Shown one piece after another: positions 4,707 through 31,676 of a DNA stretch of 64,000 nt; the stretch's first letter is position 1; every line of letters starts with the position of its first letter. The stretch is from NCBI GenBank assembly GCA_947626145.1, contig CANQRB010000004.1, positions 29,250 to 93,249 on the forward strand, given 5' to 3'. The notes beneath the pieces were generated by a model. That model saw only the letters and a list, made by a program, of their open reading frames with translations. It did not search any database and was not told where the DNA came from. The translations under genes were made by a program, and so were the position numbers. The DNA is from an uncultured Clostridia bacterium. GTDB lineage: Bacteria > Bacillota > Clostridia > UMGS1883.

Positions 4707-4720
4707 TTTAATCTACCTCC

Positions 4721-8214: not shown

Positions 8215-8235
8215 TCGATGAAATCATACAAAAAA

Positions 8236-8283
8236 GCACCTGTGACAAGCTCTTTATCGTGAGCTTGCCGCAGGTGTTTTTTT
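8236..8283 (+). terminator. Intrinsic terminator: about 16-bp imperfect stem (gcacctgtgacaagctc...gagcttgccgcaggtg) then T7
   Basis: Hairpin 8236-8276 followed by TTTTTTT at 8277-8283; sits just downstream of the right IR and before the ECF sigma gene. Confidence 0.55.
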
Positions 8284-8318
8284 AATGTGATGCCGTTATT
8301 TTCGATATAACGCAAAAA

Positions 8319-8344
8319 GCAGCCGATTTCGGCCGCTTTTTTTA
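8319..8344 (+). terminator. Second intrinsic terminator (gcagccga-ttt-cggccgc then T8)
   Basis: GC-rich hairpin followed by TTTTTTTT; A run upstream. Confidence 0.45.
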
Positions 8345-8425
8345 TTATACGCCTACGTCGCAATCCGTTCTTTGGTATCATAGTTGTATAGGCTTGTATT
8401 TCGCATAAAAAATTTAAAATTTTCC

Positions 8426-8453
8426 TGCAACTTTTCGATCCTTTGCAACGAAT
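8426..8453 (+). promoter_or_regulatory. Candidate ECF-type autoregulated promoter (-35 TGCAAC, 17 nt, -10 CGAAT) just upstream of the ECF sigma gene
   Basis: The TGCAAC -35 resembles the SigM/SigX/SigW class; a second TGCAAC copy lies nearby; about 15 nt from the RBS. Confidence 0.3.
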
Positions 8454-8471
8454 ATATTAAGTGGAAGGAGG

Positions 8472-16900: not shown

Positions 16901-18259
16901 ATTCTCATCATATTCTACCCACCTTGCATACAAAGTTAATTTATTGTTAACGGCCAATTTAAAATCATAGATATTTTCGCAATCCCTATCAGTATACCAG
17001 CCACCAAACAAATAATCTTTACGTTCAGGGTCTTTGGGAATTGTAACATTATTTCCAGCTAAAATCTCTTGACTTTCAGGCGCATCCTCTGCCCCTTCAT
17101 AATTCAAATCAAAGGTGACAGTGTAAACGCCGTCCTCCTCAATTTCTTCTTCCCAACCAGCATACAGAGTCAAGCGCTCGGTAATTTCCGTGTTCTCAAA
17201 ATCAAACTCATAAACGCATTCCTCATCTGTGTACCAGCCCGTGAAGATATAGCCCTCTCTTTCGGGATCATCGGGACGCTCTGCATAATCGTTCTTCTTT
17301 ACTTTCTGGGTAGCCGGAGGATTTTTCGCTCCTGAATAATTCAGGTCAAATTTTACATTGTATCTCGTGGTGCCGCCGGAGCTTCCGCCACCACCGCCAC
17401 CACCGGTGGAACGACTTATCGTATATTCAACGCTCATCACATCGCTGACAAGAACATCATCTTTTACCGCGATTGCCTTCAGTGTCGCGGTAGACAGTAT
17501 ATTTATATTGCCACCTGTGTATTCCTCGCTGTCAACTGTGGGCTCTGTTCCATCGGTCGTATAGTAAATCTTAACGCCCTCGGTGTCGCTCTTAAGCGTT
17601 ACAAGCTGATTTACATAATATGTGCCCGCCTCAACGGACGCGACAGGGGCGGCTACCGTTGTGCGGAGACCGTTATAAACCATTACGGCAATGTCCCCAC
17701 GGGTAGAGGCTGATCCCTTTCTGCCCTTGAGGTTATCCGTTATACCGTTATCCTCAGCCGCTTTAATATAGCCGGCAGACCAATCATCAGGGTCGGATTC
17801 AACATCGTCGCCAAGACCGACGCCGCAAACCACCATCTTTATGGCCTCTTCATATTTGACGTCGTCATCCGGCATAAATCCGCCGCTACCGTTGCCGTTT
17901 ATTATCTCCTCTTTCGCGGCGACATTGATGTAGCCGCTGGCCCAGTGGTCGGCGGGAACATCGTCAAACTTTGTGGCGCCCTTGGAATTGCGGGCATCGT
18001 TCTCCTTGCCTATCATGCGGCATACTACCGCCGCCATTTCGGACCTTGTGATAGATTTATCCGCCCCAAATGTACCGTCGGCGTAGCCGGTGAAAATGTC
18101 GAGCTTTTCCAGAGCGAGAGCCGCCTCGGCGTAATACTCATTCCCCGTAACATCGGAAAAGACCGTGCCTGCGGCAAAAGCACCGATCGGCGCAAGCGAC
18201 AGTGTCATTGCCAAAACTAAAATGATGCTTAAAAATTTTTTCACGATTGTAACCTCCAA
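13928..18259 (-). CDS. SLH-domain-anchored thermolysin-like (M4) zinc metalloprotease. Order: signal peptide, 3 SLH, Ig-like, Listeria-Bacteroides-type repeats, PepSY/FTP propeptide, M4 catalytic domain, C-terminal beta-sandwich domains. Likely GTG start at 18244
   Basis: SLH repeats (FSDVTGNEYYAEAALALEKLDIFTGYADGTFGADKSITRSEMAAV...). GWYTD repeats. HEXXH as IIAHEYTHGVVQ plus downstream NEAYADIFG (thermolysin-type zinc ligands). Poly-Gly linker. GGAGGT lies 7 nt before the GTG. Confidence 0.85.
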   Translation of the reverse strand: MEVTIVKKFLSIILVLAMTLSLAPIGAFAAGTVFSDVTGNEYYAEAALALEKLDIFTGYADGTFGADKSITRSEMAAVVCRMIGKENDARNSKGATKFDDVPADHWASGYINVAAKEEIINGNGSGGFMPDDDVKYEEAIKMVVCGVGLGDDVESDPDDWSAGYIKAAEDNGITDNLKGRKGSASTRGDIAVMVYNGLRTTVAAPVASVEAGTYYVNQLVTLKSDTEGVKIYYTTDGTEPTVDSEEYTGGNINILSTATLKAIAVKDDVLVSDVMSVEYTISRSTGGGGGGGSSGGTTRYNVKFDLNYSGAKNPPATQKVKKNDYAERPDDPEREGYIFTGWYTDEECVYEFDFENTEITERLTLYAGWEEEIEEDGVYTVTFDLNYEGAEDAPESQEILAGNNVTIPKDPERKDYLFGGWYTDRDCENIYDFKLAVNNKLTLYARWVEYDENEFNKAIVQYAYDTLEITYSKGDCKESVTHDLILPTMIETVDISWESNNINVVSESGSVSRPINENKNVRLNASISKGDYNLTKSFEVTVIKESNFNINESPNNSVVDIEQMNKDADFDTYIEYNEEGSQVTAISGKISDIDINSPDDALYAIYGVRTILGMNDPIKELNISVTNSGKYGTDYTFSQQYNGLDVYDRNLTVSVDNNGTSTSLTSDVVASANLVDVNTDPVISESEAINIAKSQYPQESVDVVSTEVVIYSLDEYEQSPVVAYVICLSGDNIDETVIINGYTGSVIYSGSNILDWGDKRVTGSGENEKNTEVSFPVQFKQWDWLFYYMEDSERNIKMYDGGLVNSRVGSEFNVWRDKTAISAYTNMIDVYNWYADTLGRRSVDGNGYPIKVTVHKFGGSSNACWTGGNKEFYFYDNSNNDSNLQTTTASGLDIIAHEYTHGVVQFKTGNGLSHDHSNGHISYAINEAYADIFGWFVDDNNYTIGEDWRPLRNVKDPSSCHKPSKVGGTNWCTNTGNKSVFAHTNSSVISHAAYLMSQGYPSYSLPAISMSKLIDLWYGSLGKGFSANSNFKTVRRNVLLQADTQGLSKAEKMTIKRAFDDVGIYGDRGTLYIQIVDAEDETFIKDATISILDDDFLIGKVQIGAEGAKELSLDVGTYSVVIEKDGYMPFYGLATVTKDNQTEELVKLVKSGEGKISGVITSATTGYPIDGVIVRLRNGWNSSKGEEISSTITNGSGEYSLTASSGYYTIEMEKYGYTTGYFNVTIIGGREVANQNGSISPSMTSNQYRAVLRWNMNPSDLDSHLVGSLSDHRNFHVYFSNRNGYNASGDLVANLDVDDTDGEGPETVTFEVDINSTYEYYVYWFYGEGTWATSGAQVELYNGNNLVEVYKVSSNQSGNSWPVFKISNGILINYHDEESLVSIESLPDKVPIKDISNEFGGKELKNEESVETAFEGDISENKNTGKKDEELNGNDETDGMIAL

Positions 18260-20716: not shown

Positions 20717-21340
20717 TTACGATTTTTTGAACTTCGTTTTAAGCGCCTCAAAGTTTGCTTTCAGCTTGGCACGCTCAGCTTCCATTTTCTGCTTGCGTTC
20801 TGCGCTACGCTCAGCGTGCATCTTACGGCGAGCTTCGTCGGCAAGTTCTTTTTCTACGCGCATTGCTTCTTCTACCTCGTCCTGTACCAATGTAGCATCG
20901 CGTCGAAGAATCGTCGTTTGAAACTTATCGAACCGAAAATCCAGTGCATGATCTGTTTCCTCCTGCGCAAGGAGAAGAATCGCGACCTCACCGTCCTCCA
21001 GCTTTGATCCAACCGTTTCCAGCATTGTGTTGTTCCGATCCACATCATCAATGTCTTTGGCGCTTCCAATCAGATGACCTGTCATACCACCCAAAAGGAT
21101 GCCGAGAGGACCACCGAGAATTCCGATCAGACCGCCAATCAGACCGCCCGCGAGGGCGTCATCGCTGCTGTCCATGCCGCTTGTGAATGAGTCTATGGTG
21201 GAAATTATATTACCGTTTTTCTTTACAAGCGCCCCTTGCAATACGGTATATTGCGGCATAATTGGCTGCTTTTTGATTCCCATGTAGGCTTGATAGCCCT
21301 CGCTTTCCACATTGAACAAAATAGTTAAGACATTTTCCAT
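20717..21340 (-). CDS. Hypothetical protein with a glycine-zipper segment and a C-terminal charged coiled coil
   Basis: GGLIGGLIGILGGPLGILLGGMTGHLIG, then ERSAERKQKMEAERAKLKANFEALK. Confidence 0.5.
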   Translation of the reverse strand: MENVLTILFNVESEGYQAYMGIKKQPIMPQYTVLQGALVKKNGNIISTIDSFTSGMDSSDDALAGGLIGGLIGILGGPLGILLGGMTGHLIGSAKDIDDVDRNNTMLETVGSKLEDGEVAILLLAQEETDHALDFRFDKFQTTILRRDATLVQDEVEEAMRVEKELADEARRKMHAERSAERKQKMEAERAKLKANFEALKTKFKKS

Positions 21341-21538
21341 TCGTGAAACTTCCTTTCTTTTGTTGTTATTTTAATCACTAAATTGCTTTTGCCAATCTAT
21401 ACACGAAATCAATTATATTGCGCCTAAAAACTTTGTATATCGGTGTTTCGGGCAATAGGGGTAACCATTAACGGACGCCGCGTCATCTCGTATTTAATCG
21501 CAAGTTTTCCTCGATCAAAGAGAAACGTAATTGCCTTT

Positions 21539-21988
21539 TTATCTCCTGTTTGCTTTTTTCAGTTCCTTTTGGGCGGCTTTGATTTCCCGTTGCAGTTCGT
21601 CAAGTTCCTGTTCCAGTGCGTCGGCAATATAATCTCCGGTAATCACAGCGGCACGAATCATACAGGCGGTGCTTACAATGGCATCCTCCACCTCTTTTCC
21701 GAGTCCGAGGAGTTCCAGAGAACCTGTGCCGTTTTCATCGTACAGCACCACGTCCGGAATCCCGTTTTTATCCGTGTCTCCGAAGTACAGATTGAATTCT
21801 CCGTCGCCGGTGAGATCCACCGCCAGCGTGTCAATATCTCCGTCGCCGGTGGTATCAAGCAAAGCCAAATCCGCTTCTTTATCTCCGTCAATATCGATCA
21901 AAATCTCGTCTTTTCCACTGCGAAGCAGTGTCTTGTGCCAGTCGCGGTCAAATTTCATTTTAGTTTTCAATTTTCTGAGGGTTCCCAT
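21539..21988 (-). CDS. Hypothetical protein with Asp/Gly-rich calcium-binding-like repeats (DxDGD) and a C-terminal coiled coil
   Basis: DIDGDKEADLALLDTTGDGDIDTLAVDLTGDGEF...DTDKNGIPD resembles EF-hand/dockerin-like loops. Confidence 0.45.
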   Translation of the reverse strand: MGTLRKLKTKMKFDRDWHKTLLRSGKDEILIDIDGDKEADLALLDTTGDGDIDTLAVDLTGDGEFNLYFGDTDKNGIPDVVLYDENGTGSLELLGLGKEVEDAIVSTACMIRAAVITGDYIADALEQELDELQREIKAAQKELKKANRR

Positions 21989-22089
21989 AGGTCATTGCTC
22001 CTTTTCTTTTATTTTGGGCTTTTTCAGCCTTTTTTATAGGGTTATTCTGTCCGCAACACAAACAGGGGCTCTCTTTGCGGCATTTCTGG

Positions 22090-22401
22090 AGGGGATGATG
22101 CCGGCAATTTCTGACGCAACAAGCACCCCACCCCTGTGGTGGCCGGGTAGTGTTTAACTTCGAAATAAATCAATGAAATCATTAGTAATCTTATAACTTC
22201 TCCCTTGATTTATTCCGTTTCATCCGATCCCATTTTTGCAGCAGCCTCTTTATAGAAACATCCAAATATCCAATATAATTTTGCCACCGTAAAATCCGCT
22301 TATGATAGGGGCCTTCCTTTCCAAAAAACTTGTTGGATTGATACCGTCTCTGCCGCTTCTCACAAATCATGATAGCAGAGAAATCTAAACTGAAACGAAA
22401 C
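22090..22401 (-). pseudogene. Degenerate partial duplication scar: copies of the relQ-operon promoter motif, the GT8 3' end and the pgsA-like 5' end, fused and decayed
   Basis: 22300-22401 aligns to 24640-24725 (promoter/leader of the SAS gene). 22105-22290 aligns to 22830-23100 with indels. No intact ORF. Confidence 0.55.
22369..22401 (-). promoter_or_regulatory. Copy (a) of the shared promoter motif, in the degenerate duplicate: GTTTCGTTTCAGTTTAGATTTCTCTGC-TATCAT on the minus strand
   Basis: Matches the motif at 24693-24725, 28689-28721 and 31643-31676. Confidence 0.4.
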
Positions 22402-22414
22402 TGTCTTTTTTCTT

Positions 22415-22987
22415 TTATTTGTGCGGAACAGGATTGTTTTTACTCAAAATATGCTTATAGTATCGGATATAAAGGATGAGAGACATAATCATCAAACATC
22501 CGCTTATTAGAATTAGACCATTTGCTATTTTCAATGGGATATCGGGGAAAAGGATAAGCACAGATATAACAATATACAAAAAAACTGTGTTCAACTTTCC
22601 ATACCATTTTGCGCTGTTGACAGTATCTTTTCGTTTCAAAGCAAGATATCCAAGCGTGGCCATGCAGATTTCTTTTCCGATAAACAATACGATCAGAACA
22701 GACATCCACTTATACCGACTCGAAAGGCAGACAATAAGTACACATTGCGTCAATTTATCCGCTATGGGGTCTAATATCTTGCCAAGATCGGATACCATAT
22801 GGAACTTCCGTGCAATGATACCATCAGCAATGTCCGTAATTGCTGACGCGACAAGCACTCCTGTGGCTGCTTGGTAGTGTTTGACCCCGATATAAAGCCA
22901 TACGATCAGCGGGATCATCAGTAATCTTATAACGCTAAGCAAATTCGGTATGGTCAGGATTTGGTCTTTTTTGAATATCCTGTGCAT
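22415..22987 (-). CDS. CDP-alcohol phosphatidyltransferase family protein (PgsA-like)
   Basis: DIADGIIARK...GKILDPIADKL motif (D-G-x2-A-R...G-x3-D-x3-D) and multiple TM helices; RBS AGGGAGG. Confidence 0.8.
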   Translation of the reverse strand: MHRIFKKDQILTIPNLLSVIRLLMIPLIVWLYIGVKHYQAATGVLVASAITDIADGIIARKFHMVSDLGKILDPIADKLTQCVLIVCLSSRYKWMSVLIVLFIGKEICMATLGYLALKRKDTVNSAKWYGKLNTVFLYIVISVLILFPDIPLKIANGLILISGCLMIMSLILYIRYYKHILSKNNPVPHK

Positions 22988-23005
22988 TGAATATCCTCCC
23001 TTAAT

Positions 23006-23851
23006 CTATTCCGTTTCATCTGATCTCATTTTTGCAACAGCCTCTTTATAGAACACATCCAAATCTCCGATATAATTTTCTTTCCACGGTTTATTCCTTC
23101 CGCAGTAGTGAATTATAATGGAGTGCTTTCGTACCCAATTCAAATCAAGACTTTTTTCAAATGGACTGTGCACCCGATAAAGCCACTCTGTCATGTTATA
23201 TCGAAATGGGTCCAGCGTATAGATTTTGCTGCCATACAGGCTGCTGATAATGTCCTGATCCGGAAAGACAAGATGAGATTTTCTCTTTTCGATGAAGTGA
23301 AACACATCCGCATAGTCCTGCTCTTTCCGTAAAAGCGAGAGGTTCATGAGCAACACGCCGGAATTAATATATGGGCTGTTGTCATCCATATCCAGACGCA
23401 GTTCATTGAACTTATGGAGAAACCCAAGACTGTCAATGTGTGACGCTGCCGCATAATAGTATTCTTCCATCGAGGTCTGATACAGTGGAAGAATCGAACC
23501 ATTGAGAACAAGATCGGGGTCAAGATAGAGCACGCGGTCGAGAGTCTCCGGCAGATAGCGTGCAGCAAAAATACGGTAATAAATCTCTTGTGGATAGCGC
23601 GAAGTTGTTGGGGCCTCGTCAAGCGCCAAATAATCAGCCTTTATTGGGATCAGACATCCTCCTGCCTTAAAAAGCATTTTTTCGGTTGCTTTAAGCGCCT
23701 GCTTTGAAATTGAGGAATGAAGAAGATACACATGGAATACGCAGCCTGGGTTGGAGCGAATCAAGGTTGAAAGCATCACATTCAAATAGGGGATGTAGTT
23801 TTCATCCAAAGTAACAAGAATATTAATCGGATTTATCAATCCAGGATTCAT
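23006..23851 (-). CDS. Glycosyltransferase family 8 (GspA / LPS-galactosyltransferase-like)
   Basis: GT8 pattern NILVTLDENYIPYLNVMLSTL, DxD-like LDPDLV, YINSGVLLMNL. Strong RBS AGGGAGG before the internal ATG at 23851; the ORF-track start at 23899 lacks an SD. Confidence 0.8.
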   Translation of the reverse strand: MNPGLINPINILVTLDENYIPYLNVMLSTLIRSNPGCVFHVYLLHSSISKQALKATEKMLFKAGGCLIPIKADYLALDEAPTTSRYPQEIYYRIFAARYLPETLDRVLYLDPDLVLNGSILPLYQTSMEEYYYAAASHIDSLGFLHKFNELRLDMDDNSPYINSGVLLMNLSLLRKEQDYADVFHFIEKRKSHLVFPDQDIISSLYGSKIYTLDPFRYNMTEWLYRVHSPFEKSLDLNWVRKHSIIIHYCGRNKPWKENYIGDLDVFYKEAVAKMRSDETE

Positions 23852-23917
23852 TTTAATCCCTCCCTGTTTCTTATGTTGTATATAGTCTTCTTCACCCATT
23901 CACAAATCCTACCATTT

Positions 23918-24625
23918 CTATCGTGGTTTCAGAGTATTTTTATTTTGTTGGGTCTTTTTTAAGAGGTTATCCATTCTCCGATCAAGTTCCGCGCTGAGGT
24001 TTGCGCACTGATAAAGTTCCTCAGCCATTTCCGGGGTAAATGCAGAATCCTTTTTATAACGAAGCTGATGTTCAAGGCTGGCCCAGAAATCCATCGCTAT
24101 CGTGCGCAGCTGAATTTCTACTTTCATCATCCGTTTTTCATGTGCCAAAAAGATCGGAATTGCTACAATCAGATGCAGACTTCTATATCCGTTGGGTTTC
24201 GGGTTTTTTATGTAGTCCTTTTTTTCAATCAGGGTAATGTCATCCTGTATGAGCAATGCCTCTGACAGCGCATAAACATCGTCCGGAAATGAGCAGATTA
24301 CTCGAACACCGGCAATATCGTTTAGATTTTCTTCTATAGAGGAAAGTGTGGGCGGGATGCCCCGCCGCTCCAATTTTTCTTTTATGCTGCGGGGATTTTT
24401 CAGTCTGGTTTTGATACTGCTTATCGGATTACGGTCGAATTCCAAAGAATATTCTTCATTCAACACATTGAATTTTGTTTCAATCTCCATCATGGCACAT
24501 TTGTAATAGGACATCAGGCGGATAAAAGGTACAGATTTTCTCTGCATCCAGTCGATTGTCTGATCGTCCACAATAGAGAGCATTCGTGTTTTTATATTTT
24601 CATCCTCTTGATTCCATTCAGACAT
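23918..24625 (-). CDS. Small alarmone synthetase (RelA/SpoT-domain GTP pyrophosphokinase, RelQ/RelP/YwaC-like)
   Basis: Single-domain RelA_SpoT synthetase motifs (GVRVICSFPDDVY...YRSLHLIV...EIQLRT). The track start is TTG; the likely start is ATG 24625 with AAGGAAG RBS. Confidence 0.8.
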   Translation of the reverse strand: MSEWNQEDENIKTRMLSIVDDQTIDWMQRKSVPFIRLMSYYKCAMMEIETKFNVLNEEYSLEFDRNPISSIKTRLKNPRSIKEKLERRGIPPTLSSIEENLNDIAGVRVICSFPDDVYALSEALLIQDDITLIEKKDYIKNPKPNGYRSLHLIVAIPIFLAHEKRMMKVEIQLRTIAMDFWASLEHQLRYKKDSAFTPEMAEELYQCANLSAELDRRMDNLLKKTQQNKNTLKPR

Positions 24626-24692
24626 TCTGATCTTCCTTTCCAAAAAACAAAGCTTGTTGGATCAATACCGGCTCTGCCGCTTTTCGCAGGTA

Positions 24693-24725
24693 ATGATAGC
24701 AGAGAAAACTAAACTGAAACAAAAC
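24693..24725 (-). promoter_or_regulatory. Copy (b) of the shared promoter motif upstream of the SAS-GT8-PgsA operon: GTTTTGTTTCAGTTTAGTTTTCTCTGC-TATCAT on the minus strand
   Basis: Conserved TTTCnTTTCAGTTTAG block, then 8 nt, then a -10-like hexamer, at fixed spacing; 65-100 nt upstream of the start codon. Confidence 0.55.
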
Positions 24726-24726: not shown

Positions 24727-24758
24727 ACGACGGACCCTTCGAAAAAGAAGAATCCGTC
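24727..24758 (-). terminator. Candidate terminator of the Hsp70 operon (gacggattcttctttttcgaagggtccgtc then TTGTTTTGTTT on the minus strand), abutting promoter motif (b)
   Basis: Nested hairpin followed by a T-rich tract in the minus-strand direction. Confidence 0.35.
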
Positions 24759-24818: not shown

Positions 24819-26588
24819 TCAAGCTGCAAGGCAGCGAGCGTTGGCGCTGGATTGCTCCAGCCGGTCAGATGCTGCTTTGATTGCAGCCATCTCACTTTCA
24901 GTTACGGTTTCCGGTTTATATTTGCCAAGCAACTTTCGTAATGCAGAACAGTCTTCTTTAATCTGCTTTTTTTCTTCTTTTTCAAGCTGCTTCCCAACTT
25001 TGTGCAATGCCTGTTCAGCTTCTGATAATACCTTCCCTGCGCGATTAACCATTTCTAAAGAGTTACGGCGAACACCATCCTGTGCCGCATACTGTTCCGC
25101 ATCGCGAATCGCCTGTTCAATCTCCGCATCGGACATTTTATCATTGTTCGAAATGGTAATAGACTGTGCTTTCCCCGTATCCAAATCTCTTGCGGACACT
25201 TTTAAAATTCCATTGGCATCAATGTCGAAAGTAACTTCAATCTGCGGCACTCCTGCGGGGGCTTTCTTAATTCCGTTAAGTTTGAATTTGCCGATGGTCT
25301 TATTATCGCGTGCCATTGGCCGTTCTCCTTGTAGAACATGAATTTCCACACTGCTTTGAAACGGTGCCGCGGTTGAAAAAATCTGTGAATAGTGAATGGG
25401 CAAAGTGGAATTTCTCTCCACAAGACGTGTTGCGACACCGCCTACTGTTTCAATAGAAAGGCTGAGAGGGGTAACATCCAAAAGAAGGATACCGTTTTCC
25501 GAACCGGCAATCTGCAGCGAACCGCCAGAAAGCGTGTCTCCCTGAATGGCGGCGCCCTGAGCAACACACTCATCCGGATTGATATTCTTTGACGGTATAA
25601 TACCGGTCAATTGACGCACTTTTTCCTGAACAGCGGGAATACGGGTTGCGCCTCCGACAAGGATGACCTTGCCAAGTTCGGATGGCGCAATACCAGCATC
25701 ATTCAAGGCGTTCTGTACCGGAATTGCTGTTCGATCCACAAGATCGCGGGTCAGCTCGTTGAATTTGGCACGGGTGAGGATAGTATCAAAGTGTATTATG
25801 CCGTCCTTTTCCTGGGCCAGGTACGGCAGGCTTATCATAGCGTTCTCTGAGCCGGACAGTTCCTTTTTTGCCTGTTCAGCCGCTTCACGCACACGCTGCA
25901 ATGCTACATAATCTTTTTTTACATCTGTATGATACTGCCTCTGAATTTCCGAAATCAAATACTCAGTGATACGCTCATCAAAGTCATCGCCGCCCAAATG
26001 GTTATCACCATTTGTTGCCAGAACTTCTATAACGCCGTCTCCAATCTCAATGATGGAAACATCAAAAGTACCGCCGCCAAGGTCATATACCATGACCTTT
26101 TGCTGTGTTCCGTTATCCAGCCCGTAAGCAAGCGCGGCGCTGGTTGGCTCATTAATAATCCGTTTTACATTTAAGCCTGCAATTCGCCCGGCATCTTTTG
26201 TGGCCTGTCGCTGAATATCGTTAAAATAAGCGGGTACAGTGATGACCGCGTCCGTCACTTCCTCTCCAAGAAAGGCTTCTGCATCCTTGCGCAGTTTTCG
26301 TAGAATCATTGCACTGATCTCCTGCGGCGTAAATCTTTTACCGTCAATATTGATAGTCCAATCCGTCCCCATGTGACGTTTCACAGACGAAACGGTTCGG
26401 GACGCATTAGTAACCGCCTGTCGTCTTGCCGTTTCACCCACTAACCGTTCACCGGATGCGGTAAAAGCAACAATGCTGGGAGTGGTTCTTCCGCCTTGTT
26501 CGCTTGGAATGATAACGGGTTTGCCGCCCTCTACAAAAGCGACGCAGCTATTCGTTGTTCCAAGATCAATACCGATTGTTTTTCCCAC
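24819..26588 (-). CDS. Hsp70-family chaperone, atypical (not in an hrcA-grpE-dnaK-dnaJ context); probable GTG start giving [12 protein letters not shown]
   Basis: Actin-like NBD motifs [13 protein letters not shown] and [12 protein letters not shown], an SBD and a C-terminal lid; RBS AAAGGATGG before GTG 26588. Confidence 0.85.
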
Positions 26589-26605
26589 AGTAATTCCATC
26601 CTTTC

Positions 26606-27406
26606 CTACATACATCTAAGGCAGCCAAATGGGCCGCATAGGAATTGCATGGCTAAAAAGCCAAAACATATTTTTTGTATATTAGTGGCTTCCATATCGA
26701 AGCCTTTTGCATTTTGTTCATAGGTTTGCTCTGAACGGCGAAATTTTTGCAAAAGCAGATGATAGGTGCGATTATTCGGCTCCATTTGTGATGCTCTCTG
26801 CATATGGTCGATTGCCTGAACGGTGTTACCAAGACCATGATTGGCAAGAGCGCTTAAATAATACCACCTTGCACCTCGTCCTACGCTCGGTATACGGGTC
26901 AAAATCCAAATTGCCTCTTGATAGCGATGGTTATTGATTTCAGTAATGGCCTGCCTGATTTCCATATTGTCGCCCGGCTCAGGCTGCGGATTCATAAAAA
27001 CGGCATCATCATTGCCGTTCCGTTCAAATCCAAATCCAAAAATATTCCCAAAGTCAAAGCCGCCAAAATCGCTCGACCAGCCACCCGGACCTCGATAACC
27101 GCCAGAGCCGCCCTGCCTTTCATATCCGGTTCCACTATAACCGCCGTTTTGATTTTCCGTATATCCCCCATATTGCCTACTCTGTCCGTAAGATTGGCGC
27201 TGCTGTGCTCGCCTTGCCTCATACTTCTGCGGATTCATCAACATATCGTAGGCTTCATTCACCGCATTCATTTTTTGGCTCGCGGTCGGATCATCGGGAT
27301 GCAAGTCAGGATGATATTGCTTTGCCTTTTGACGATATGCTTTTTTTATTTCTTCTTTAGTCGCTCCTTTAGGAACGCCCAGAGTTTGATAAGGGTCATT
27401 GACCAT
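26606..27406 (-). CDS. J-domain protein (DnaJ-like N-terminus, Gly/Tyr-rich linker, TPR-like C-terminus)
   Basis: J-domain with HPD ([34 protein letters not shown]); lacks the DnaJ zinc-finger/CTD architecture. Confidence 0.8.
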
Positions 27407-27409
27407 GGC

Positions 27410-28228
27410 TCACTTTTTCCTTTCCGTCTGCATTTGCCGGTTATATTTGATCCAAACGCCAGAATAAAGAATGTTCCTTAAAATGTGGGCGTCCTGGACA
27501 AGCGGCAGCGATTCAAAGGCTTCAGCAGCTTCTCCGAGAATGGTCTTCAGCATGGAGCGGATTTCTTCCTGACTCAGAGTGACAGAAGAAAAAGGATTAT
27601 AACTTCCTTTTTTCTGGTCATGCCTTAAATCAATCGCGGCATCGGCAAGATAGATATACTTTCCGATATGATAACCAAACTTCTGCAAACGCGGCATCCA
27701 GTGATCCGGCTCAACCACAAAAATCGTTGACATCAATCTGCCAAAGCTGTTGGCTGCCGCATCTGGAGAGGCGAAGCAGGATTTCTCAATTTCAGAGATT
27801 TCATTTATTTCCTTTTCGATGATCGAACACTGATCTTTTCTTGCTGCTCTGACTTCTTCATAAGCCTTTTTAAGCAGAGTGGCATAGCACTTGTGGGAGA
27901 TATTTCGATCATCGTTCCAGTCGTCAAGACATTTGAAGTATGTCAAGGCTATTGTCATATCGGCGGCATAGTCTATATATTTACCGGACAGATAATTATG
28001 TTTCTTGCATGGATGCACGGCACATCGCACCGCTTTGCTGGTTTCCTCCGGTTCATACAAGGATGATAAAAACATAGCCAAGAATGTCAGATCGTATGTC
28101 AGTCCCAATCGCGACCTAAATCCATACCTTTCCCCCAACGCATGACACAATCCGCAATAAAAGGCACGATACCGTTCTTTTTCTTCATCAGTAAGACCGG
28201 ATAAATTGGCCTGTATGATTCCAAACAT
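27410..28228 (-). CDS. Conserved hypothetical protein (Cys-containing; in my recollection the kind of DUF found next to non-canonical dnaJ/hsp70 genes in Clostridia)
   Basis: No recognisable catalytic motifs; tightly packed between the J-protein and Zn-ribbon genes (3-nt and 9-nt gaps). Confidence 0.55.
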   Translation of the reverse strand: MFGIIQANLSGLTDEEKERYRAFYCGLCHALGERYGFRSRLGLTYDLTFLAMFLSSLYEPEETSKAVRCAVHPCKKHNYLSGKYIDYAADMTIALTYFKCLDDWNDDRNISHKCYATLLKKAYEEVRAARKDQCSIIEKEINEISEIEKSCFASPDAAANSFGRLMSTIFVVEPDHWMPRLQKFGYHIGKYIYLADAAIDLRHDQKKGSYNPFSSVTLSQEEIRSMLKTILGEAAEAFESLPLVQDAHILRNILYSGVWIKYNRQMQTERKK

Positions 28229-28237
28229 AGTGCCACC

Positions 28238-28648
28238 TCATGTTTTGCGGGTTATTTTGCCTTTACATACCGGACAAGTGATTTCAATTTGCCCTTTTCC
28301 TTTCGGAACTCGTAGCCAACTTTTGCAGTTCGGACATTTATAATACCGATGCGTCTTTCGATCTCGCCACATATTTTTCCGACGTTTGAAACTCTGCTTC
28401 ACTTTGTCTGTATATTTCAAGAAAGTTTCCCGCTCCTTCTGTCGTTTTTCAAGATTGCGGGAAAAGCTGCGAAACATCGACCAAATCAACAGAATCATCG
28501 CAATCGGATATAGCAGAGGGACGAGCGGGGAAATGAGTACGAAAACCAGCACCGCAATCAATAGAAATTTGGAAAGCTCGTCATAGCCGTATCTTCCGTA
28601 CATCCATGCCTGCATTTTTTCTCCGAGCCTTTGCAACCATCGTTTCAT
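28238..28648 (-). CDS. Membrane-anchored zinc-ribbon protein
   Basis: One TM helix followed by CPNCKSW...CPVCKGK (two CxxC pairs). Confidence 0.6.
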   Translation of the reverse strand: MKRWLQRLGEKMQAWMYGRYGYDELSKFLLIAVLVFVLISPLVPLLYPIAMILLIWSMFRSFSRNLEKRQKERETFLKYTDKVKQSFKRRKNMWRDRKTHRYYKCPNCKSWLRVPKGKGQIEITCPVCKGKITRKT

Positions 28649-28688: not shown

Positions 28689-28721
28689 ATTTTACAGCAA
28701 GAATCTAAACTGAAACGAAAC
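28689..28721 (-). promoter_or_regulatory. Copy (c) of the shared promoter motif upstream of the ZnR-DUF-DnaJ-Hsp70 operon: GTTTCGTTTCAGTTTAGATTCTTGCTG-TAAAAT on the minus strand
   Basis: Same block and spacing as copies (b) and (d); the extended -10 TGTAAAAT lies about 40 nt upstream of the ATG. Confidence 0.55.
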
Positions 28722-28928
28722 TAAGGAAGAGCTTTCTTCCAGACTATTTTTTCGGTAAGTTCAGTTCTGATAGATTTACTGAATAGCCGCAGAAGTCATA
28801 GACCTACATAAAAAAGAACCTCCACAACGAAGGCTCTCACGGTAAATCTCATATTGGAAGCGGCAGTATGCCTCACAGCACACTGCCACTTTACGCTTCT
28901 CATGCTTAATTAAATGTCCCGCACTATT

Positions 28929-29714
28929 TTATCCAATGCCTCTGAAAGCATTAACGGAAAGAATCGCCACGCCTAAAACCGTCAGCACCACACCAACAGC
29001 CCTGTTGAGCGTTTTGGCGCTGGCCTTGTTTGCGAACAATGCGGCGATCCTTGCCCACAACAGAGTAAACGCCACGCAGAGAGCGAGACACCATAGGTCG
29101 GGCATATCGCCAATGGCAAAATGACTGACGGCGCCGGTCAGCGCGGTAAAGGTCATAATAAAGACACTGGTACCCACAGCGGTTTTTAATTCATATCCCA
29201 AAATGCTGGTCAACAGAAGCAGCATCATCATTCCACCGCCTGCGCCCACAAAACCACAAATGAAGCCGACGACCATTCCGCAGACAATCGACTGAATCGT
29301 CCGCTTTTTTGCGCTTACGACAGCCATCGCCTCCTTTGTGGTCATGACAGGTTTTACAATAAATTTGATGCCCAAAAGCATCGTCATGAAGACGGAGAAG
29401 CTGCCCATAGTGGCGTTGGAGACCAGACTGGCTACCCAACTGCCTACTAAGGTGAAAAGCAAGACGGCCACCATCATAACAAGCCCGTTGCGAATGTCGA
29501 TGTTTTTGTTTTTTCCATAGGTATAGGCGCTGACCGCACTTGCCAGCACGTCACTTGCCAGAGCGATGCCTACCGCTTCATAAGCCGGCATACCCATAAA
29601 TGTGATCAGCATTGGGCTGATGACTGCGGCGGCGCTCATTCCGGCAAAACCGGTTCCCAAACCCGCTCCGATACCTGCTATAAAACAAACTAAAACTTTT
29701 ACCCACAGATTCAT
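28929..29714 (-). CDS. TSUP/TauE-SafE family membrane transporter (likely start MNLWVK at 29714)
   Basis: Gly-rich TM helices (GIGAGLGTGFAGMSAAAV...GGGMMMLLLL) typical of TauE/SafE; the internal ATG gives the typical about 260-aa length. Confidence 0.7.
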   Translation of the reverse strand: MNLWVKVLVCFIAGIGAGLGTGFAGMSAAAVISPMLITFMGMPAYEAVGIALASDVLASAVSAYTYGKNKNIDIRNGLVMMVAVLLFTLVGSWVASLVSNATMGSFSVFMTMLLGIKFIVKPVMTTKEAMAVVSAKKRTIQSIVCGMVVGFICGFVGAGGGMMMLLLLTSILGYELKTAVGTSVFIMTFTALTGAVSHFAIGDMPDLWCLALCVAFTLLWARIAALFANKASAKTLNRAVGVVLTVLGVAILSVNAFRGIG

Positions 29715-29845
29715 TTTGCGTTTTTCTCCATATATTTTTTTATATTCTTTTCCACCCGCGTTATGTAGGACTGAAACTGCCGCTGACCTCTTTGTCAAGA
29801 TCGTCTGCGATGATATCCGCAAAATCGAAGCACTCTGATAAAAAA

Positions 29846-30940
29846 TCAGTTTTTCTGGCTTTCTTCTTCTGCATTTAGCTTTGATTTCGGCAATGTAACC
29901 GTAAACATGGTAAGATTGTTTTCGCTTTGAACCGAAACCGTTCCGTTGTGCAATTCCACCACTTTTTTGACAATTGCAAGCCCGATTCCGTTTCCCTCAC
30001 CGGAGTGTGAACTGTCAGCCTGATAAAATTTCTGAAAGATTCGTGATATACTTTCCGCAGGAATTTCCTCTCCCGAATTGATGATATCCACGGACAGGGA
30101 AGACGGTTGATTTTTAATATTGACTTCAATGACTCCTCCAGCGGGAGAAAATTTGATCGCGTTATCCAGCAGATTGATCCACACCTGTTTCAAAAGCTCC
30201 TCATTGGCAGAAATCCTGTATTCACCGAAATCCACTTTAAAGTCCAGTTGCTTTTTTTCCCACTTGTCGGCAAGCAACAGGATGGAAGACCGGATTTGTT
30301 CTGAAAGGTTAAACTTTACAACATCCGTTAAAATCGTTTGATTTTCTACCCGCGTCAGATTCAACACGTTTGTCGCCATATCAGAAAGCCGCAGAGATTC
30401 TTCTTCGATAACCGCCAAATATTCCCCTTTTTGTTCTTCTGTCAGGTTGCCTCGGCGAAGCAGCTTTGCAAAGCCGGCAATAGATACGATGGGCGTTTTG
30501 AATTCATGCGAAAAATTATTTACAAAATCCCCACGAAGCATCTCTGTATTTTTGAGTTCAGAAGCCATTCGATTGAAGCTGTGCGAAAGCTGCGAAAAAG
30601 TAGGATGTTTGGATATGGGCCATCCGAAATCCAATCGGGCACTGAAATCACCGGATGCCAGCCGATCGATTTGATAAATTACATTCCGCAGGGGGCGGGC
30701 GGATATTTTACTGGATAAATAGGCAACAATGACACCGACAATATTACTGATGACGATCATGTAGAGGATGATAATACCGATGTTTGATCGGATATCGGTA
30801 TCAAGCGTGACAACTTGAAAATGTACCAGCATATAAATAATAGAAGCGGTTATTGAAGTAATAATAAATTGAATGAAAAAAATAAGTGTCGATATTAAAA
30901 ACGTGAGCGCAAAATAATGTTTTCGATTTTGTTTGTTCAT
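29846..30940 (-). CDS. Intramembrane-sensing sensor histidine kinase (two N-terminal TM helices with a short loop, HisKA, HATPase_c)
   Basis: H-box SHEFKTPIVSIAGFAKLL; N/G1/G2 boxes (LLDNAIKF, GEGNGIGLAIVKK); the extracellular loop is only about 14 aa. Confidence 0.85.
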   Translation of the reverse strand: MNKQNRKHYFALTFLISTLIFFIQFIITSITASIIYMLVHFQVVTLDTDIRSNIGIIILYMIVISNIVGVIVAYLSSKISARPLRNVIYQIDRLASGDFSARLDFGWPISKHPTFSQLSHSFNRMASELKNTEMLRGDFVNNFSHEFKTPIVSIAGFAKLLRRGNLTEEQKGEYLAVIEEESLRLSDMATNVLNLTRVENQTILTDVVKFNLSEQIRSSILLLADKWEKKQLDFKVDFGEYRISANEELLKQVWINLLDNAIKFSPAGGVIEVNIKNQPSSLSVDIINSGEEIPAESISRIFQKFYQADSSHSGEGNGIGLAIVKKVVELHNGTVSVQSENNLTMFTVTLPKSKLNAEEESQKN

Positions 30941-31611
30941 ACTTTTTTCACCGCCTTATATCCGAGCCCGCGCACGGATTCGATATCAAATTCTTCCCAA
31001 CCCTCGAACCGTTTGCGGAGCCTGCCGATGTGAACCGTCACAGTTTCCCACCCGGTATCGCTCTCAGCGCCCCAGATTTCATCCATCAGTTGAATCCGTG
31101 TAAAAATCTTTCCGGGGTATGACAGCAATTTATAAAGTAACAAAAATTCCTTTTGCGGGAGTTCTTGTGTCTCGCCGTTTTTGGTCACGGTAAAGGAATC
31201 GTAATCCAAAATTACATTTCCAATCGTCATTTTACGTTCGTTGGCAATTTGAGCGCGGCGTAGAAGTGCTTTGATTCGCCAGAGCATTTCTTCCTCATCA
31301 ATCGGTTTTGTCATGTAGTCGTCAATCCCTAATGAAAAACCTTTATGTTTATCTTCGGGGAGCTGTTTTGCCGAAACCATAAGAATGGGAAGATTGTTCT
31401 TGCTTTCGCGGAGGATTTTTGTAAATTCATATCCGTCCATTTTCGGCATCATTATGTCGAGAATCACAAGGTCAATATACTCTTTATCCATTACATCGAG
31501 GGCGTCTTCACCGTTTTCCGCAGTAAATACAGAATAGTGCTCCGTTTCAAGCACGGCTTTGAGCAGCCGGCGTGTATTTTTATCGTCGTCTACAACAAGA
31601 ATTTGGAACAT
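30937..31611 (-). CDS. OmpR-family response regulator (REC plus winged-helix), 4-nt overlap with the kinase gene
   Basis: Receiver motifs DDD/D55-like (LVILDIMMPKMDG) and T/K; C-terminal trans_reg_C (TVHIGRLRKRF...LGYKAV). Confidence 0.9.
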   Translation of the reverse strand: MFQILVVDDDKNTRRLLKAVLETEHYSVFTAENGEDALDVMDKEYIDLVILDIMMPKMDGYEFTKILRESKNNLPILMVSAKQLPEDKHKGFSLGIDDYMTKPIDEEEMLWRIKALLRRAQIANERKMTIGNVILDYDSFTVTKNGETQELPQKEFLLLYKLLSYPGKIFTRIQLMDEIWGAESDTGWETVTVHIGRLRKRFEGWEEFDIESVRGLGYKAVKKV

Positions 31612-31642: not shown

Positions 31643-31676
31643 AAGATAACATACAAATCTAAACTGAAAAGAAAGT
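31643..31676 (-). promoter_or_regulatory. Copy (d) of the shared promoter motif upstream of the RR-HK-TauE operon: ACTTTCTTTTCAGTTTAGATTTGTATGT-TATCTT on the minus strand
   Basis: Same block and spacing; sits 32-65 nt upstream of the RR start codon. Confidence 0.55.

Follow-up and report, generated by a model that had tools for sequence, protein, structure and literature searches.

A DUF5685/J-protein module with an additional DnaK paralogue in an uncultured Clostridia bacterium: a candidate stress-induced chaperone system of the membrane

An operon of four genes that ends with an Hsp70 gene is located in a 64,000-nucleotide (64-kb) stretch of a contig from an uncultured Clostridia bacterium, here designated the window. 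All four reading frames are encoded on the minus strand at the positions given in the initial annotation. The proteins were searched against Pfam and NCBIfam. The operon and the hairpins enclosing it are composed as follows:

28648..28238, minus strand: membrane zinc-ribbon protein, 136 aa, first gene
28228..27410, minus strand: DUF5685 protein, 272 aa, second gene (PF18937, E 2e-94)
27406..26606, minus strand: J-protein, 266 aa, third gene (DnaJ domain, residues 4-61; weak TPR_2 match)
26588..24819, minus strand: DnaK-like Hsp70, fourth gene (PF00012, E 1e-216), reading frame open from ATG 26615
28814..28838, minus strand: terminator-like hairpin with T-run that marks the end of the RR-HK-TauE unit upstream and sets the four-gene operon apart
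24729..24758, minus strand: terminator-like hairpin (12 bp) with T-run downstream of the Hsp70 gene

The zinc-ribbon and DUF5685 genes are separated by 9 nt, the DUF5685 and J-protein genes by 3 nt. At the J-protein/Hsp70 junction, there is either a 10-nt overlap (ATG 26615) or a 17-nt gap (GTG 26588, the better start). These positions and gaps bear out the tight operon with the Hsp70 gene in last place that had been described initially, and a four-gene operon bounded by intrinsic-terminator-like hairpins is confirmed. The 64-kb window contains no CIRCE, and tblastn detected neither hrcA nor grpE nor a second dnaK in it. A credible CtsR box was not found in the window either, the single match with 2 mismatches at 45607 being at chance level. 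Within the window, the statement that no GrpE gene and no CIRCE or CtsR operator are visible therefore holds. No isc genes are located near the operon. A literature search yielded no paper describing a DUF5685/J-protein/Hsp70 module, in line with the earlier remark that the system appears uncharacterised.

The Hsp70 is probably synthesized from GTG 26588 as a 589 aa protein and not from ATG 26615. This GTG is preceded by the RBS AGGAAAGGA at 26607-26599, and the public protein collection holds the GTG-26588 form, not the ATG-26615 form. NBD, linker and SBD are all complete. An insertion of 7-11 residues ahead of the interdomain linker and the absence of the acidic C-terminal tail are traits common to the operon-linked Hsp70s. 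The protein is neither HscC (NF008673, 72 bits vs. a cut-off of 331) nor HscA (TIGR01991, 558.9 vs. 708.55). It scores 798.6 bits with the prok_dnaK equivalog TIGR02350, below the cut-off of 822.55, and passes the broader model NF001413 'DnaK' (810.4 bits vs. 648). In an NJ tree calculated without bootstrap, the operon-linked Hsp70s of Lachnospiraceae, Oscillospiraceae, Christensenellales and Eggerthellaceae form one clade, with the only four canonical sequences included (DnaK of loci L091 and L149, Geobacillus and M. tuberculosis) all outside it. They are 58-62% identical to the DnaK of L091, a clostridial protein encoded in a CIRCE-hrcA-grpE-dnaK operon. This canonical DnaK shares 70% identity with Geobacillus DnaK, the window Hsp70 62%. 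The Eggerthellaceae operon Hsp70s share 67-72% identity with the window protein and 53-54% with M. tuberculosis DnaK. Sequence comparison hence supports a DnaK paralogue in a distinct clade, not the housekeeping DnaK. The separate clade, the identities of 58-62% vs. 70% and the lack of hrcA, grpE and CIRCE in the window agree with the earlier placement of this Hsp70 outside hrcA-grpE-dnaK-dnaJ.

The J-protein begins with a J domain with HPD (1-74), followed by a disordered Gly/Tyr/Phe linker (74-134) with a conserved DIF-like FGFGF motif, a TPR domain at residues 140-230 and, at the C-terminus, a hydrophobic string of cysteines (C247, C257, C262, C265). The J domain (PF00226, E 5e-21; HPD invariant) and the G/F region correspond to those of class A proteins. 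Nevertheless, the J-protein is not a class A DnaJ: It reaches 83 bits with TIGR02349 (cut-off 377), the match is limited to residues 5-150, and both the Cys-rich zinc finger and the C-terminal client domains are missing, the C-terminal half being the TPR domain. All 76 J-proteins compared have 4-8 cysteines within the final 25 residues and a median of 1 in the rest of the protein; sister-clade tails have up to 10. The tails are hydrophobic, with a mean Kyte-Doolittle value of +1.26 over the last 20 residues. Among the 76 tails, 17 end with xxCC, 16 with xxCx and about 20 with CxC types, and there is no fixed CaaX. A minimal J partner of 137 aa consists of J domain, linker and Cys string and lacks the TPR. 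The only constant parts are, therefore, the J domain, the Gly-rich linker and the hydrophobic cysteine string. The initial annotation had recognised J domain, Gly/Tyr linker and TPR-like tail correctly and had missed the cysteine string.

Gene neighbourhoods were compared across genomes. In 138 of 139 informative loci, the J gene directly follows the DUF5685 gene: This applies to all 77 genome loci and, within a divergent clade, to 61 of the 62 loci from metagenomes. In the remaining metagenome locus, the J gene is located 1.4 kb downstream with an inserted transporter gene in between. The zinc-ribbon gene precedes DUF5685 in 56 of 73 loci. By contrast, an Hsp70 gene accompanies the module in 46 of the 61 loci that belong to the window's clade (missing in 15) and in 1 of 48 sister-clade loci. 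The gene order is conserved in dozens of species from several families, far beyond chance. This shows that the conserved core comprises the zinc-ribbon protein, DUF5685 and the J-protein, with a fixed DUF5685-J pair, and that the Hsp70 is an optional add-on, a dedicated DnaK paralogue added in the window's clade. Since the Hsp70 gene is missing in most sister-clade loci and in 15 of 61 loci of the own clade, the organisms concerned must rely on a DnaK from another locus. Apart from this optional status of the Hsp70, the overall reading proposed at the outset, a specialised Hsp70 system outside hrcA-grpE-dnaK-dnaJ, is supported.

The module is nearer to the heat-shock system than had been assumed. 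In L029, a perfect CIRCE is located directly upstream of the four-gene operon. In L091, the module is immediately followed by CIRCE-hrcA-grpE-dnaK, and in L149, the order is CIRCE-hrcA-grpE-dnaK-DUF5685-J. These arrangements suggest that in other lineages, the module is under HrcA/CIRCE heat-shock control. The position of DUF5685-J in L149 after hrcA-grpE-dnaK, the usual dnaJ place, together with the NF001413 score and the 62% identity to Geobacillus DnaK, could indicate that the operon is simply the housekeeping DnaK/DnaJ system of the organism in rearranged form. This explanation is very improbable, as the operon-linked Hsp70s constitute a separate clade with a common insertion and a lost acidic tail, the TIGR02350 score is below cut-off, and the J-protein is far under the DnaJ cut-off and has no client-binding domains. 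Moreover, the Hsp70 gene is missing in most sister-clade and 15 of 61 own-clade loci, and L091 has module and canonical operon side by side. Compared to canonical DnaK-DnaJ-GrpE, the full DnaK architecture, the HPD and the G/F-type linker are alike, and relatives of the module are apparently CIRCE-controlled or adjoin hrcA-grpE-dnaK. In contrast to canonical DnaK, the window Hsp70 belongs to the separate clade and has the pre-linker insertion and no acidic tail. Unlike canonical DnaJ, the J-protein has TPR repeats and the Cys string in place of zinc-finger and client domains. Furthermore, the window operon lacks grpE, hrcA and CIRCE, and its promoter is of the two-component-system type. The corresponding features are:

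28700..28722, minus strand: OmpR-type direct-repeat motif, TTTCGTTTCAG / TTTAGATTCTT, 11-bp period (GTTTCAGTTTAGWTTYT match 28716..28700), at the -35 position of the four-gene operon promoter
28689..28694, minus strand: -10-like hexamer TAAAAT of the four-gene operon, 6 nt past the motif, predicted from the alignment, in which it lines up with TATCAT/TATCTT of the other three sites
31670..31654, minus strand: motif copy in the promoter of the response regulator/kinase operon itself
24720..24704, minus strand: motif copy upstream of the alarmone synthetase operon
22396..22380, minus strand: motif copy upstream of a 149-aa ORF (21988..21539), with a DUF1269 gene (21340..20717) further downstream
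24643..22415, minus strand: alarmone synthetase operon (RelA_SpoT small alarmone synthetase, GT8 glycosyltransferase, CDP-alcohol phosphatidyltransferase)
31611..30937, minus strand: OmpR-family response regulator, candidate regulator of the module
30940..29846, minus strand: histidine kinase with two TM segments about 13 residues apart (intramembrane-sensing type), HAMP, HisKA and HATPase

The motif GTTTCAGTTTAGWTTYT has 6 matches with up to 3 mismatches in the window vs. 0.64 expected. The four best ones are all on the minus strand and in the same register to a -10-like box about 10 nt downstream, which substantiates the earlier claim that the operon carries a shared motif. As in OmpR-family regulons, direct repeats cover the -35 region both in front of the regulator genes themselves and in front of the putative target genes. 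Upstream of the orthologous operon, the motif recurs in six other species (L001, L003, L005, L007, L023, L025). Orthologous RR/HK genes adjoin the module in L003, L005, L006, L010, L015, L017, L022 and L034, and the RRs are 73-94% identical. From motif position and gene content, we infer that the response regulator acts on the operon via this motif. The motif-bearing gene set looks like an envelope-stress regulon.

The G+C content of the window between 4 and 34 kb is below that of the flanks, and the module was apparently transferred between phyla, from Clostridia to Eggerthellaceae. Both would suit an anti-phage or mobile-element accessory system that uses an Hsp70 by chance. Such a system is extremely improbable: PADLOC yielded no significant matches, the loci inspected have no integrase or phage genes next to the module, and control by HrcA or by a two-component system of the envelope type speaks for a physiological role, not for defence.

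The membrane zinc-ribbon protein has a basic N-terminus with a conserved YGRYGxDxLS, one 32-residue hydrophobic stretch (28-59), which is read as a hairpin, and a very basic linker thereafter. The hydrophobic stretch is flanked by basic residues on both sides (net +3 and +19). The cysteine pairs CPNC (105-108) and CPVC (125-128) constitute a C-terminal CxxC-N16-CxxC ribbon, and the CxxC...CxxC pattern is kept in 54 of 56 homologues. Both the pairs and the hydrophobic segment match the membrane-anchored double-CxxC zinc-ribbon protein predicted initially. Named relatives were not found; all 292 of 292 database relatives are unnamed.

The DUF5685 protein was previously listed as a conserved hypothetical protein of 272 aa. 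Conservation and length are correct, and the protein (PF18937) is modelled as a trans-isoprenyl-diphosphate-synthase fold of the all-alpha class I isoprenoid synthase type. The first Asp-rich motif, D102-D103-W-x-D106 at the C-terminal end of helix 83-107, agrees with DDxxD. The second, D196-x3-D200-x3-D204 at the end of helix 178-199, is not a DDxxD and is nearer to the DxxxD of squalene/phytoene synthases. In the model, both acidic, putatively metal-binding motifs are located at C-terminal ends of long helices as in FARM and SARM. D102, D106, D196, D200, D204, C25, C28 and C69 are invariant in members about 30-40% identical, as are H72 and C134 in close relatives. The N-terminus has an invariant MFG. 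Besides DUF5685, the Pfam search (E up to 10) returned only a chance-level Ribosomal_L40e match and no polyprenyl_synt. A profile search matched no prenyl synthase in the PDB, and hhalign against E. coli IspA gave a probability of 0.2%.

Taken as a whole, these proteins may form a stress-induced, membrane-directed J-protein/DnaK module whose membrane tether depends on DUF5685, a reading that is about evenly poised between right and wrong. DUF5685 would bind an allylic prenyl diphosphate, with FPP as the obvious candidate in these bacteria, and act on or hold the cysteine tail of the J-protein, whose gene follows after 3 nt. The relation between DUF5685 and the tail is suggested by the linkage in 138 of 139 loci and by the cysteine string kept even in the minimal 137-aa partner. 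Prenylation of a tail cysteine by DUF5685 is a hypothetical step, proposed by analogy. The tail could also be a plain tail-anchor helix without modification. Through DUF5685, the J-protein would become attached to the membrane on its cytoplasmic side, where the zinc-ribbon hairpin protein may be its partner or dock; the membrane location is suggested by the 32-residue hydrophobic segment of the latter with its basic flanks. There, the J domain with HPD and G/F-DIF region would recruit and activate the DnaK paralogue of the operon, or, in species without the paralogue, the housekeeping DnaK. The TPR domain might select partner or client, and nucleotide exchange would presumably be performed by the housekeeping GrpE. 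The adjacent OmpR-type RR and the intramembrane-sensing kinase would switch the operon on via the direct-repeat motif at -35 and induce it together with the alarmone synthetase, lipid and glycosyl transferases and the DUF1269 membrane protein.

Alternatively, DUF5685 might be an ordinary lipid-biosynthetic enzyme that makes a specialised isoprenoid under stress, for instance a terpenoid that protects the membrane or a variant polyprenyl carrier. In that case, J-protein and Hsp70 would fold, assemble or regulate the enzyme or work in parallel, and the Cys tail would be a plain membrane anchor. This is unlikely. A metabolic enzyme is not expected to keep a J gene downstream in 138 of 139 loci of clades about 35-40% identical, and the Cys string is the sole invariant non-J feature of the partner. 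In addition, the DUF5685 neighbourhoods inspected are devoid of other isoprenoid-pathway genes.

All but one of the four proteins contain conserved Cys clusters, and the hosts of the module are all strict gut anaerobes. This might be expected of a thiol/metal sensor or metallochaperone in which Zn or Fe-S is bound, or disulfides are formed, by the Cys string, the Cys/His cluster of DUF5685 and the four cysteines of the ribbon. J-protein/DnaK would in this way be switched on under oxidative or metal stress, with the fold as an inactive scaffold. Precedents are Hsp33 as a redox-switched chaperone and the zinc centres in DnaJ. Such a role is distinctly unlikely, as a dead scaffold would not hold five acidic motif residues invariant, the strongly hydrophobic J-protein tail has neither His or Asp ligands nor a regular CxxC spacing, and the regulators found, an intramembrane-sensing kinase and HrcA, are not of the redox type.

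The membrane-tether reading can be compared with several known systems. The earlier likeness to E. coli HscC/DjlC holds as an analogy in logic and not as orthology, given the HscC model score. HscC with DjlC/DjlB is also a second Hsp70 beside a membrane-anchored non-DnaJ J-protein without an NEF gene. HscC is a divergent, specialised Hsp70, and DjlC is anchored by an ordinary TM segment and lacks a TPR, a Cys string and a DUF5685 or Zn-ribbon partner. By contrast, the window Hsp70 is DnaK-like, and its operon adds DUF5685 and Zn-ribbon partners. DNAJC5/CSPalpha, which acts with Hsc70 and the TPR protein SGT, likewise combines a J domain with a hydrophobic segment dense in Cys. The two merely resemble each other, with no homology beyond the J domain. 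In CSP, DHHC enzymes S-palmitoylate an internal string, whereas the string of the window J-protein is C-terminal and its lipidation hypothetical. Moreover, J domain and TPR are here united in one polypeptide, and a prenyl-synthase fold is modelled for the linked enzyme. In DNAJC3/P58IPK, the TPR is N-terminal, so that the domain order is reversed compared to the window J-protein; it acts in the eukaryotic ER lumen and has neither a Cys string nor a linked enzyme.

Yeast Ydj1 and human DNAJA1/2, whose C-terminal Cys is prenylated for membrane-associated function, are a precedent for the proposed mechanism. They have one CaaX Cys and an alpha-alpha-barrel zinc farnesyltransferase, whereas here several Cys and another enzyme fold are found. 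DUF5685 has no detectable sequence relationship to ComQ (with ComX), PalQ, the ChrPC P-domain or Ord1. ComQ and PalQ are trans-IDS-like enzymes that prenylate a peptide encoded alongside, some being specific for the peptide terminus (PMC13290415). The characterised trans-IDS-like peptide prenyltransferases all target Trp, not Cys, and have a conserved Gln before SARM (PMC13290415). DUF5685, by contrast, has I-Y-L-A and no Gln before D196, and the window tail has no Trp. Its gene adjoins that of the Cys-tailed J-protein in 138 of 139 loci, and this putative substrate is a chaperone cofactor of 266 aa instead of a secreted peptide.

Gut anaerobes thus possess a widespread chaperone module without prior study, in which a prenyl-synthase-like enzyme is encoded beside a Cys-tailed J-protein. 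In the bacterium of the window, the DUF5685/J-protein pair has gained an extra copy of DnaK.

The four genes of the operon lie head-to-tail on the minus strand of the window, with the Hsp70 gene last, and are bracketed by two hairpins:

28838..28814, minus strand: terminator-like hairpin 3' of the upstream TauE-family gene
28648..28238, minus strand: membrane zinc-ribbon protein, 136 aa, with CPNC and CPVC pairs (weak Pfam/NCBIfam zinc-ribbon match)
28228..27410, minus strand: DUF5685 protein, 272 aa (Pfam, E 2e-94)
27406..26606, minus strand: J-protein, 266 aa (DnaJ domain, E 5e-21; sub-threshold TPR match)
26615..24819, minus strand: Hsp70, ORF of 598 aa (Pfam, E 1e-216)
24758..24729, minus strand: terminator-like hairpin 3' of the Hsp70 gene

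The zinc-ribbon and DUF5685 genes are separated by 9 nt, the DUF5685 and J-protein genes by 3 nt. Owing to these short gaps and the bracketing hairpins, the four genes form a self-contained unit. ORFs, gaps, hairpins and Pfam/NCBIfam matches bear out the tight four-gene operon ending in Hsp70 that was proposed in the initial annotation. The Hsp70 most likely starts at GTG 26588, which yields 589 aa: A good RBS (AGGAAAGGA) is located just upstream, and a canonical N-terminus results. The ORF from ATG 26615 overlaps the J-protein gene and has no RBS. Public gene calls support the GTG: A public protein collection contains the 589-aa form, but not the 598-aa one. A copy on a 191-kb NCBI contig is annotated as 496 aa, i.e. 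by a different gene call. The 64-kb window contains no CIRCE and no credible CtsR box, and tblastn detected neither hrcA, grpE nor a second dnaK in it. This agrees with the initial annotation, which had reported no GrpE gene and no CIRCE or CtsR operator. An Rfam search of 19-33 kb returned two sub-threshold matches, an sRNA and a histone 3' stem-loop (26662-26709, minus strand, inside the 3' end of the J-protein gene; 24.5 bits vs. a gathering score of 34). Both were taken as chance.

A scan of a genome collection with a DUF5685 alignment yielded at least 567 confirmed loci from more than 560 species-level genomes. The best 80 were analysed. Their hosts are Lachnospiraceae, Oscillospiraceae, Faecalibacterium-like bins, Christensenellales and Eggerthellaceae. 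Gene order was counted at loci with enough flanking DNA. Among these best 80 of at least 567 loci, the J-protein gene is located directly 3' of DUF5685 in 77 of 77 cases, the zinc-ribbon gene 5' of it in 56 of 73, and an Hsp70 gene follows in 46 of 61. Where Hsp70 is missing, the three remaining genes stand by themselves, e.g. adjoining pfkA and dnaE. A second scan, of metagenomes, used divergent DUF5685 members (31-45% identical to the seed protein) as seeds and sampled a sister clade. Here, the J-protein gene lies immediately 3' of DUF5685 in 61 of 62 loci, a transporter gene intervening in the 62nd. The zinc-ribbon gene is usually found upstream, and Hsp70 follows in only one of 48 loci. 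One DUF5685 member is followed by a minimal, TPR-free J-protein of 137 aa, in which a Gly/Tyr linker connects the J domain to the tail SWCLSMILLNMLCNCCCFRPC. From the locus counts and this minimal protein it follows that DUF5685 and a J-protein whose tail is rich in cysteines make up the invariant unit. The zinc-ribbon protein is a frequent third member, while the TPR domain and Hsp70 are lineage-specific additions. The specialised Hsp70 system postulated initially is supported, but the emphasis shifts away from Hsp70: The DUF5685/J-protein pair is the conserved heart of the module. A defence or mobile system finds no support: PADLOC gave no meaningful match.

Two peculiar contexts were encountered. 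In the homologous loci L142 and L146 (5831-7549), the gene directly after DUF5685 joins the first ~50 J-domain residues to a 572-aa cardiolipin-synthase-like protein carrying HKD motifs; the zinc-ribbon gene comes next. Either the fusion is real and ties the module to the synthesis of phospholipids, or it is an artefact of a deletion or of the assembly. In another species (L081-L083, 8745-13697), the four-gene operon is located immediately 5' of spo0A, which is probably coincidental synteny.

In the J-protein model, the J domain (1-74) is confident, the Gly/Tyr/Phe linker (74-134) disordered and a terminal helix of low confidence; a TPR domain (140-230) follows the linker. Within the linker, the segment PGGW..DF..(D)IFGFGF is conserved and similar to the DIF motif known from G/F regions. 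The most conspicuous element is the tail. All 76 relatives have 4-8 cysteines (median 6) in their final 25 residues, compared to a median of one in the other ~235 residues. The tail is hydrophobic (mean Kyte-Doolittle +1.26 over the last 20 residues) and usually ends in xxCC, xxCx or CxC variants. In an alignment of 37 J-proteins, C257 is invariant and C247, R264 and C265 are present in at least 90%. Tails of the sister clade have up to 10 cysteines. In these tails (L084-L161), a Trp usually stands just before the first string cysteine (SWCLS, NWCLS, KWC, RWC); the window tail has no Trp. This residue matters because the known transferases that resemble trans-IDS (trans-isoprenyl diphosphate synthases) modify Trp.

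In the zinc-ribbon protein, the conserved motif YGRYGxDxLS is part of a basic N-terminus. It is followed by a hydrophobic stretch of 32 residues, with SPLVP at its centre, and by a strongly basic C-terminal part (net +19) ending in CxxC-N16-CxxC. Since both flanks are basic, the protein most likely enters the membrane as a hairpin and has its two termini in the cytoplasm. None of its database relatives has a name.

The window Hsp70 is 61.7% identical to DnaK of Geobacillus kaustophilus and 54.1% to that of M. tuberculosis; these two canonical proteins share 66%. The window protein has 67-72% identity with operon-linked Hsp70s of Eggerthellaceae, which belong to the Actinomycetota; with the actinobacterial DnaK of M. 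tuberculosis, these Hsp70s share only 53-54%. A neighbour-joining tree with four canonical sequences, calculated without bootstrap, unites all operon-linked Hsp70s in a single long-stemmed clade. They have in common an insertion of 7-11 residues right before the interdomain linker and lack the acidic tail; the window protein scores slightly under the TIGR02350 equivalog cut-off. The Hsp70 had been called non-canonical before, and clade, insertion, missing tail and score substantiate this. Identities, tree, insertion and tail mean that it is a dedicated DnaK paralogue travelling with the module. Relatives link the module to the heat-shock system, either physically or through regulation, as in three homologous loci:

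L091 (metagenome), 4561-10526: zinc-ribbon, DUF5685 and J-protein genes, immediately followed by a perfect CIRCE, hrcA, grpE and dnaK
L149 (metagenome), 1257-6571: CIRCE-hrcA-grpE-dnaK-DUF5685-J
L029, 5509-9506: perfect CIRCE between an unrelated kinase gene and the zinc-ribbon gene of the four-gene operon

The L091 DnaK has the typical acidic tail DDVVDADFKEV. It shares 70.4% identity with Geobacillus DnaK, compared to just 58-62% with operon-linked Hsp70s. Where the module Hsp70 is lacking, the J-protein must consequently use a DnaK encoded elsewhere, as in L091. That the operon is a rearranged housekeeping system is contradicted by the phylogeny, the J-protein architecture and the patchy presence of Hsp70. 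We infer that a canonical dnaK operon is located elsewhere in the genome of the window organism.

How is the operon controlled? The initial annotation mentioned a shared motif. This motif, GTTTCAGTTTAGWTTYT, is real: Six matches were found vs. 0.64 expected. In an alignment, the four best copies consist of an 11-bp direct repeat (TTTCgTTTCAG/TTTAGATTtCT) followed at fixed spacing by a -10-like hexamer. They are located on the minus strand upstream of:

the zinc-ribbon/DUF5685/J-protein/Hsp70 operon
31611..28929, minus strand: operon of an OmpR-family response regulator, a histidine kinase and a TauE permease
24643..22415, minus strand: operon of a RelA_SpoT small alarmone synthetase, a GT8 glycosyltransferase and a CDP-alcohol phosphatidyltransferase
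a 149-aa ORF, with the gene for a DUF1269 membrane protein further downstream

A sigma-70 consensus scan found nothing at the intergenic promoter of the operon, which was instead deduced from the alignment of the four sites. In the kinase, a HAMP domain is preceded by two hydrophobic segments ~13 residues apart, the architecture of intramembrane-sensing kinases. The motif also precedes the orthologous operon in six other species, and an orthologous regulator/kinase pair (regulators 73-94% identical) adjoins the module in eight loci. Sites at the regulator's own and at neighbouring promoters are the usual signature of an autoregulated two-component regulon, in which the response regulator would bind the motif. 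The probable regulon (20717-24643 and 28929-31611, minus strand) comprises the regulator-kinase-TauE and alarmone synthetase operons, the 149-aa ORF, coding for an acidic protein with DxDxDG-like repeats, and the DUF1269 protein, a glycine-zipper membrane protein. Small alarmone synthetases are induced by cell-wall stress in Bacillus subtilis and Staphylococcus aureus. With an alarmone synthetase, transferases for lipids and sugars, and membrane proteins among its products, the regulon looks like an envelope-stress response. The module belongs to stress regulons: In some lineages it depends on HrcA, here probably on the two-component system.

The alarmone synthetase and 149-aa ORF promoters have a common leader of ~70 nt (22330-22396 and 24650-24720, minus strand). 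An inverted repeat in it, CTCTGC-N22-GCAGAG, overlaps the -10 box TATCAT. The leader is also conserved in the homologous loci L001 and L002; a second operator or a leader structure might be present here. The region 4000-34000 has a G+C content of 0.38-0.48 vs. 0.53-0.63 in both flanks and may be an island or merely a compositionally distinct region. It contains the regulon, ABC-transporter genes and a large surface protease. The ORF at 13928-18259 (minus strand) encodes a 1,443-aa surface protein with SLH domains, Listeria-Bacteroides repeats, an M4 (thermolysin) peptidase and CarboxypepD_reg.

DUF5685 comprises 5,831 representatives of 50%-identity clusters, essentially always stand-alone proteins of ~275 aa. 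Apparent domain fusions among long representatives were rejected as miscalled starts or low-complexity extensions. Sequence-profile comparisons revealed no trace of a prenyl-synthase fold. The AlphaFold2 model, calculated with 18 homologues, is of high confidence (pLDDT 86.8, pTM 0.88), all-helical save one hairpin and of trans-IDS fold. In this model, the acidic motifs D102-D103-W-x-D106 and D196-x3-D200-x3-D204 are located at the C-terminal ends of long helices, like FARM and SARM, the first and second Asp-rich motifs of trans-IDS. D102, D106, D196, D200, D204, C25 and C28 (YCGLC motif), C69, M1 and G3 are invariant even in the divergent set. F2 is nearly invariant, and closer relatives all share H72 and C134 as well. 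Zinc is a possible ligand of the Cys/His set. That the predicted residues for binding metal and diphosphate have been kept speaks for an active enzyme with an isoprenoid diphosphate as substrate. Such an enzyme might make a stress lipid and be linked to the chaperones only indirectly. This is plausible, but leaves the near-absolute adjacency to a Cys-tailed J-protein unexplained. That the module is a thiol or metal switch is improbable, since this would account neither for the invariant acidic motifs nor for the hydrophobicity of the tail.

The data establish the gene linkage, the DUF5685 fold with its conserved residues, the J-protein architecture of J domain, TPR and cysteine string, the paralogue status of Hsp70 and promoters of stress type; the mechanism built on them is inferred. 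The general reading, to which we give an even chance, is a membrane-tethered co-chaperone module. The J-protein would be held at the membrane via its tail, and DUF5685 would be functionally tied to this tail because it is the sole non-J element that always accompanies DUF5685. The J domain would recruit the dedicated or a housekeeping DnaK to membrane-proximal clients, with TPR domain and zinc-ribbon protein serving partner or client recognition. A more specific and rather unlikely version is that DUF5685 is the founding member of a family of bacterial protein S-prenyltransferases: With a trans-IDS fold, it would take farnesyl or another allylic diphosphate as donor and alkylate the cysteine string at the C-terminus of the J-protein it is paired with. 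This would yield a "bacterial cysteine-string protein", anchored by prenylation, through which DnaK is stationed at the membrane. Among trans-IDS-like enzymes, ComQ, PalQ and the ChrPC P-domain prenylate a polypeptide whose gene lies next to their own, and PalQ requires a terminal acceptor (PMC13290415). According to a 2026 review, all characterised trans-IDS-like members target tryptophan via a conserved glutamine (PMC13290415). Unlike the ComQ/PalQ-type transferases, DUF5685 does not have this glutamine. In eukaryotes, functional parallels are farnesylated Ydj1/DNAJA and the palmitoylated cysteine-string protein, which acts with Hsc70 and the TPR protein SGT. If prenylation occurs, DUF5685/J-protein would be their convergent counterpart.

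Specialised Hsp70/J-protein pairs are already known as a kind of system. New are the accessories without precedent, a prenyl-synthase-fold protein and the cysteine-string tail of a bacterial J-protein, as well as the dedicated DnaK paralogue clade. In the searchable literature, DUF5685 is mentioned once, in a list of C. difficile hypothetical proteins, and searches for bacterial cysteine-string or prenylated J-proteins found nothing relevant. A survey of DnaK duplications covers neither Clostridia nor the DUF5685/J-protein context (PMC11019930). As suspected in the initial annotation, the searchable literature thus holds no description of the system. The three core proteins have neither name nor paper, although their hosts are dominant gut Clostridia and Eggerthellaceae. 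DUF5685 gains a testable biochemical identity as an isoprenoid diphosphate user. A new class of bacterial J-proteins is defined by J domain, G/F linker, optional TPR and Cys string. A dedicated DnaK paralogue clade with a known co-chaperone is a rarity among bacterial Hsp70 paralogues. Should prenylation hold true, bacteria would have their first endogenous system for prenylating protein cysteines, and the modification would no longer be confined to eukaryotes. It would also provide the first Cys-directed trans-IDS-like transferase, extending the chemistry of these enzymes beyond tryptophan. Should it prove false, the module is still a defined membrane-proximal proteostasis system. Wired to a putative envelope-stress two-component system and an alarmone synthetase, or to HrcA, it is relevant to the survival of gut anaerobes exposed to bile, antimicrobial peptides, heat and antibiotics.
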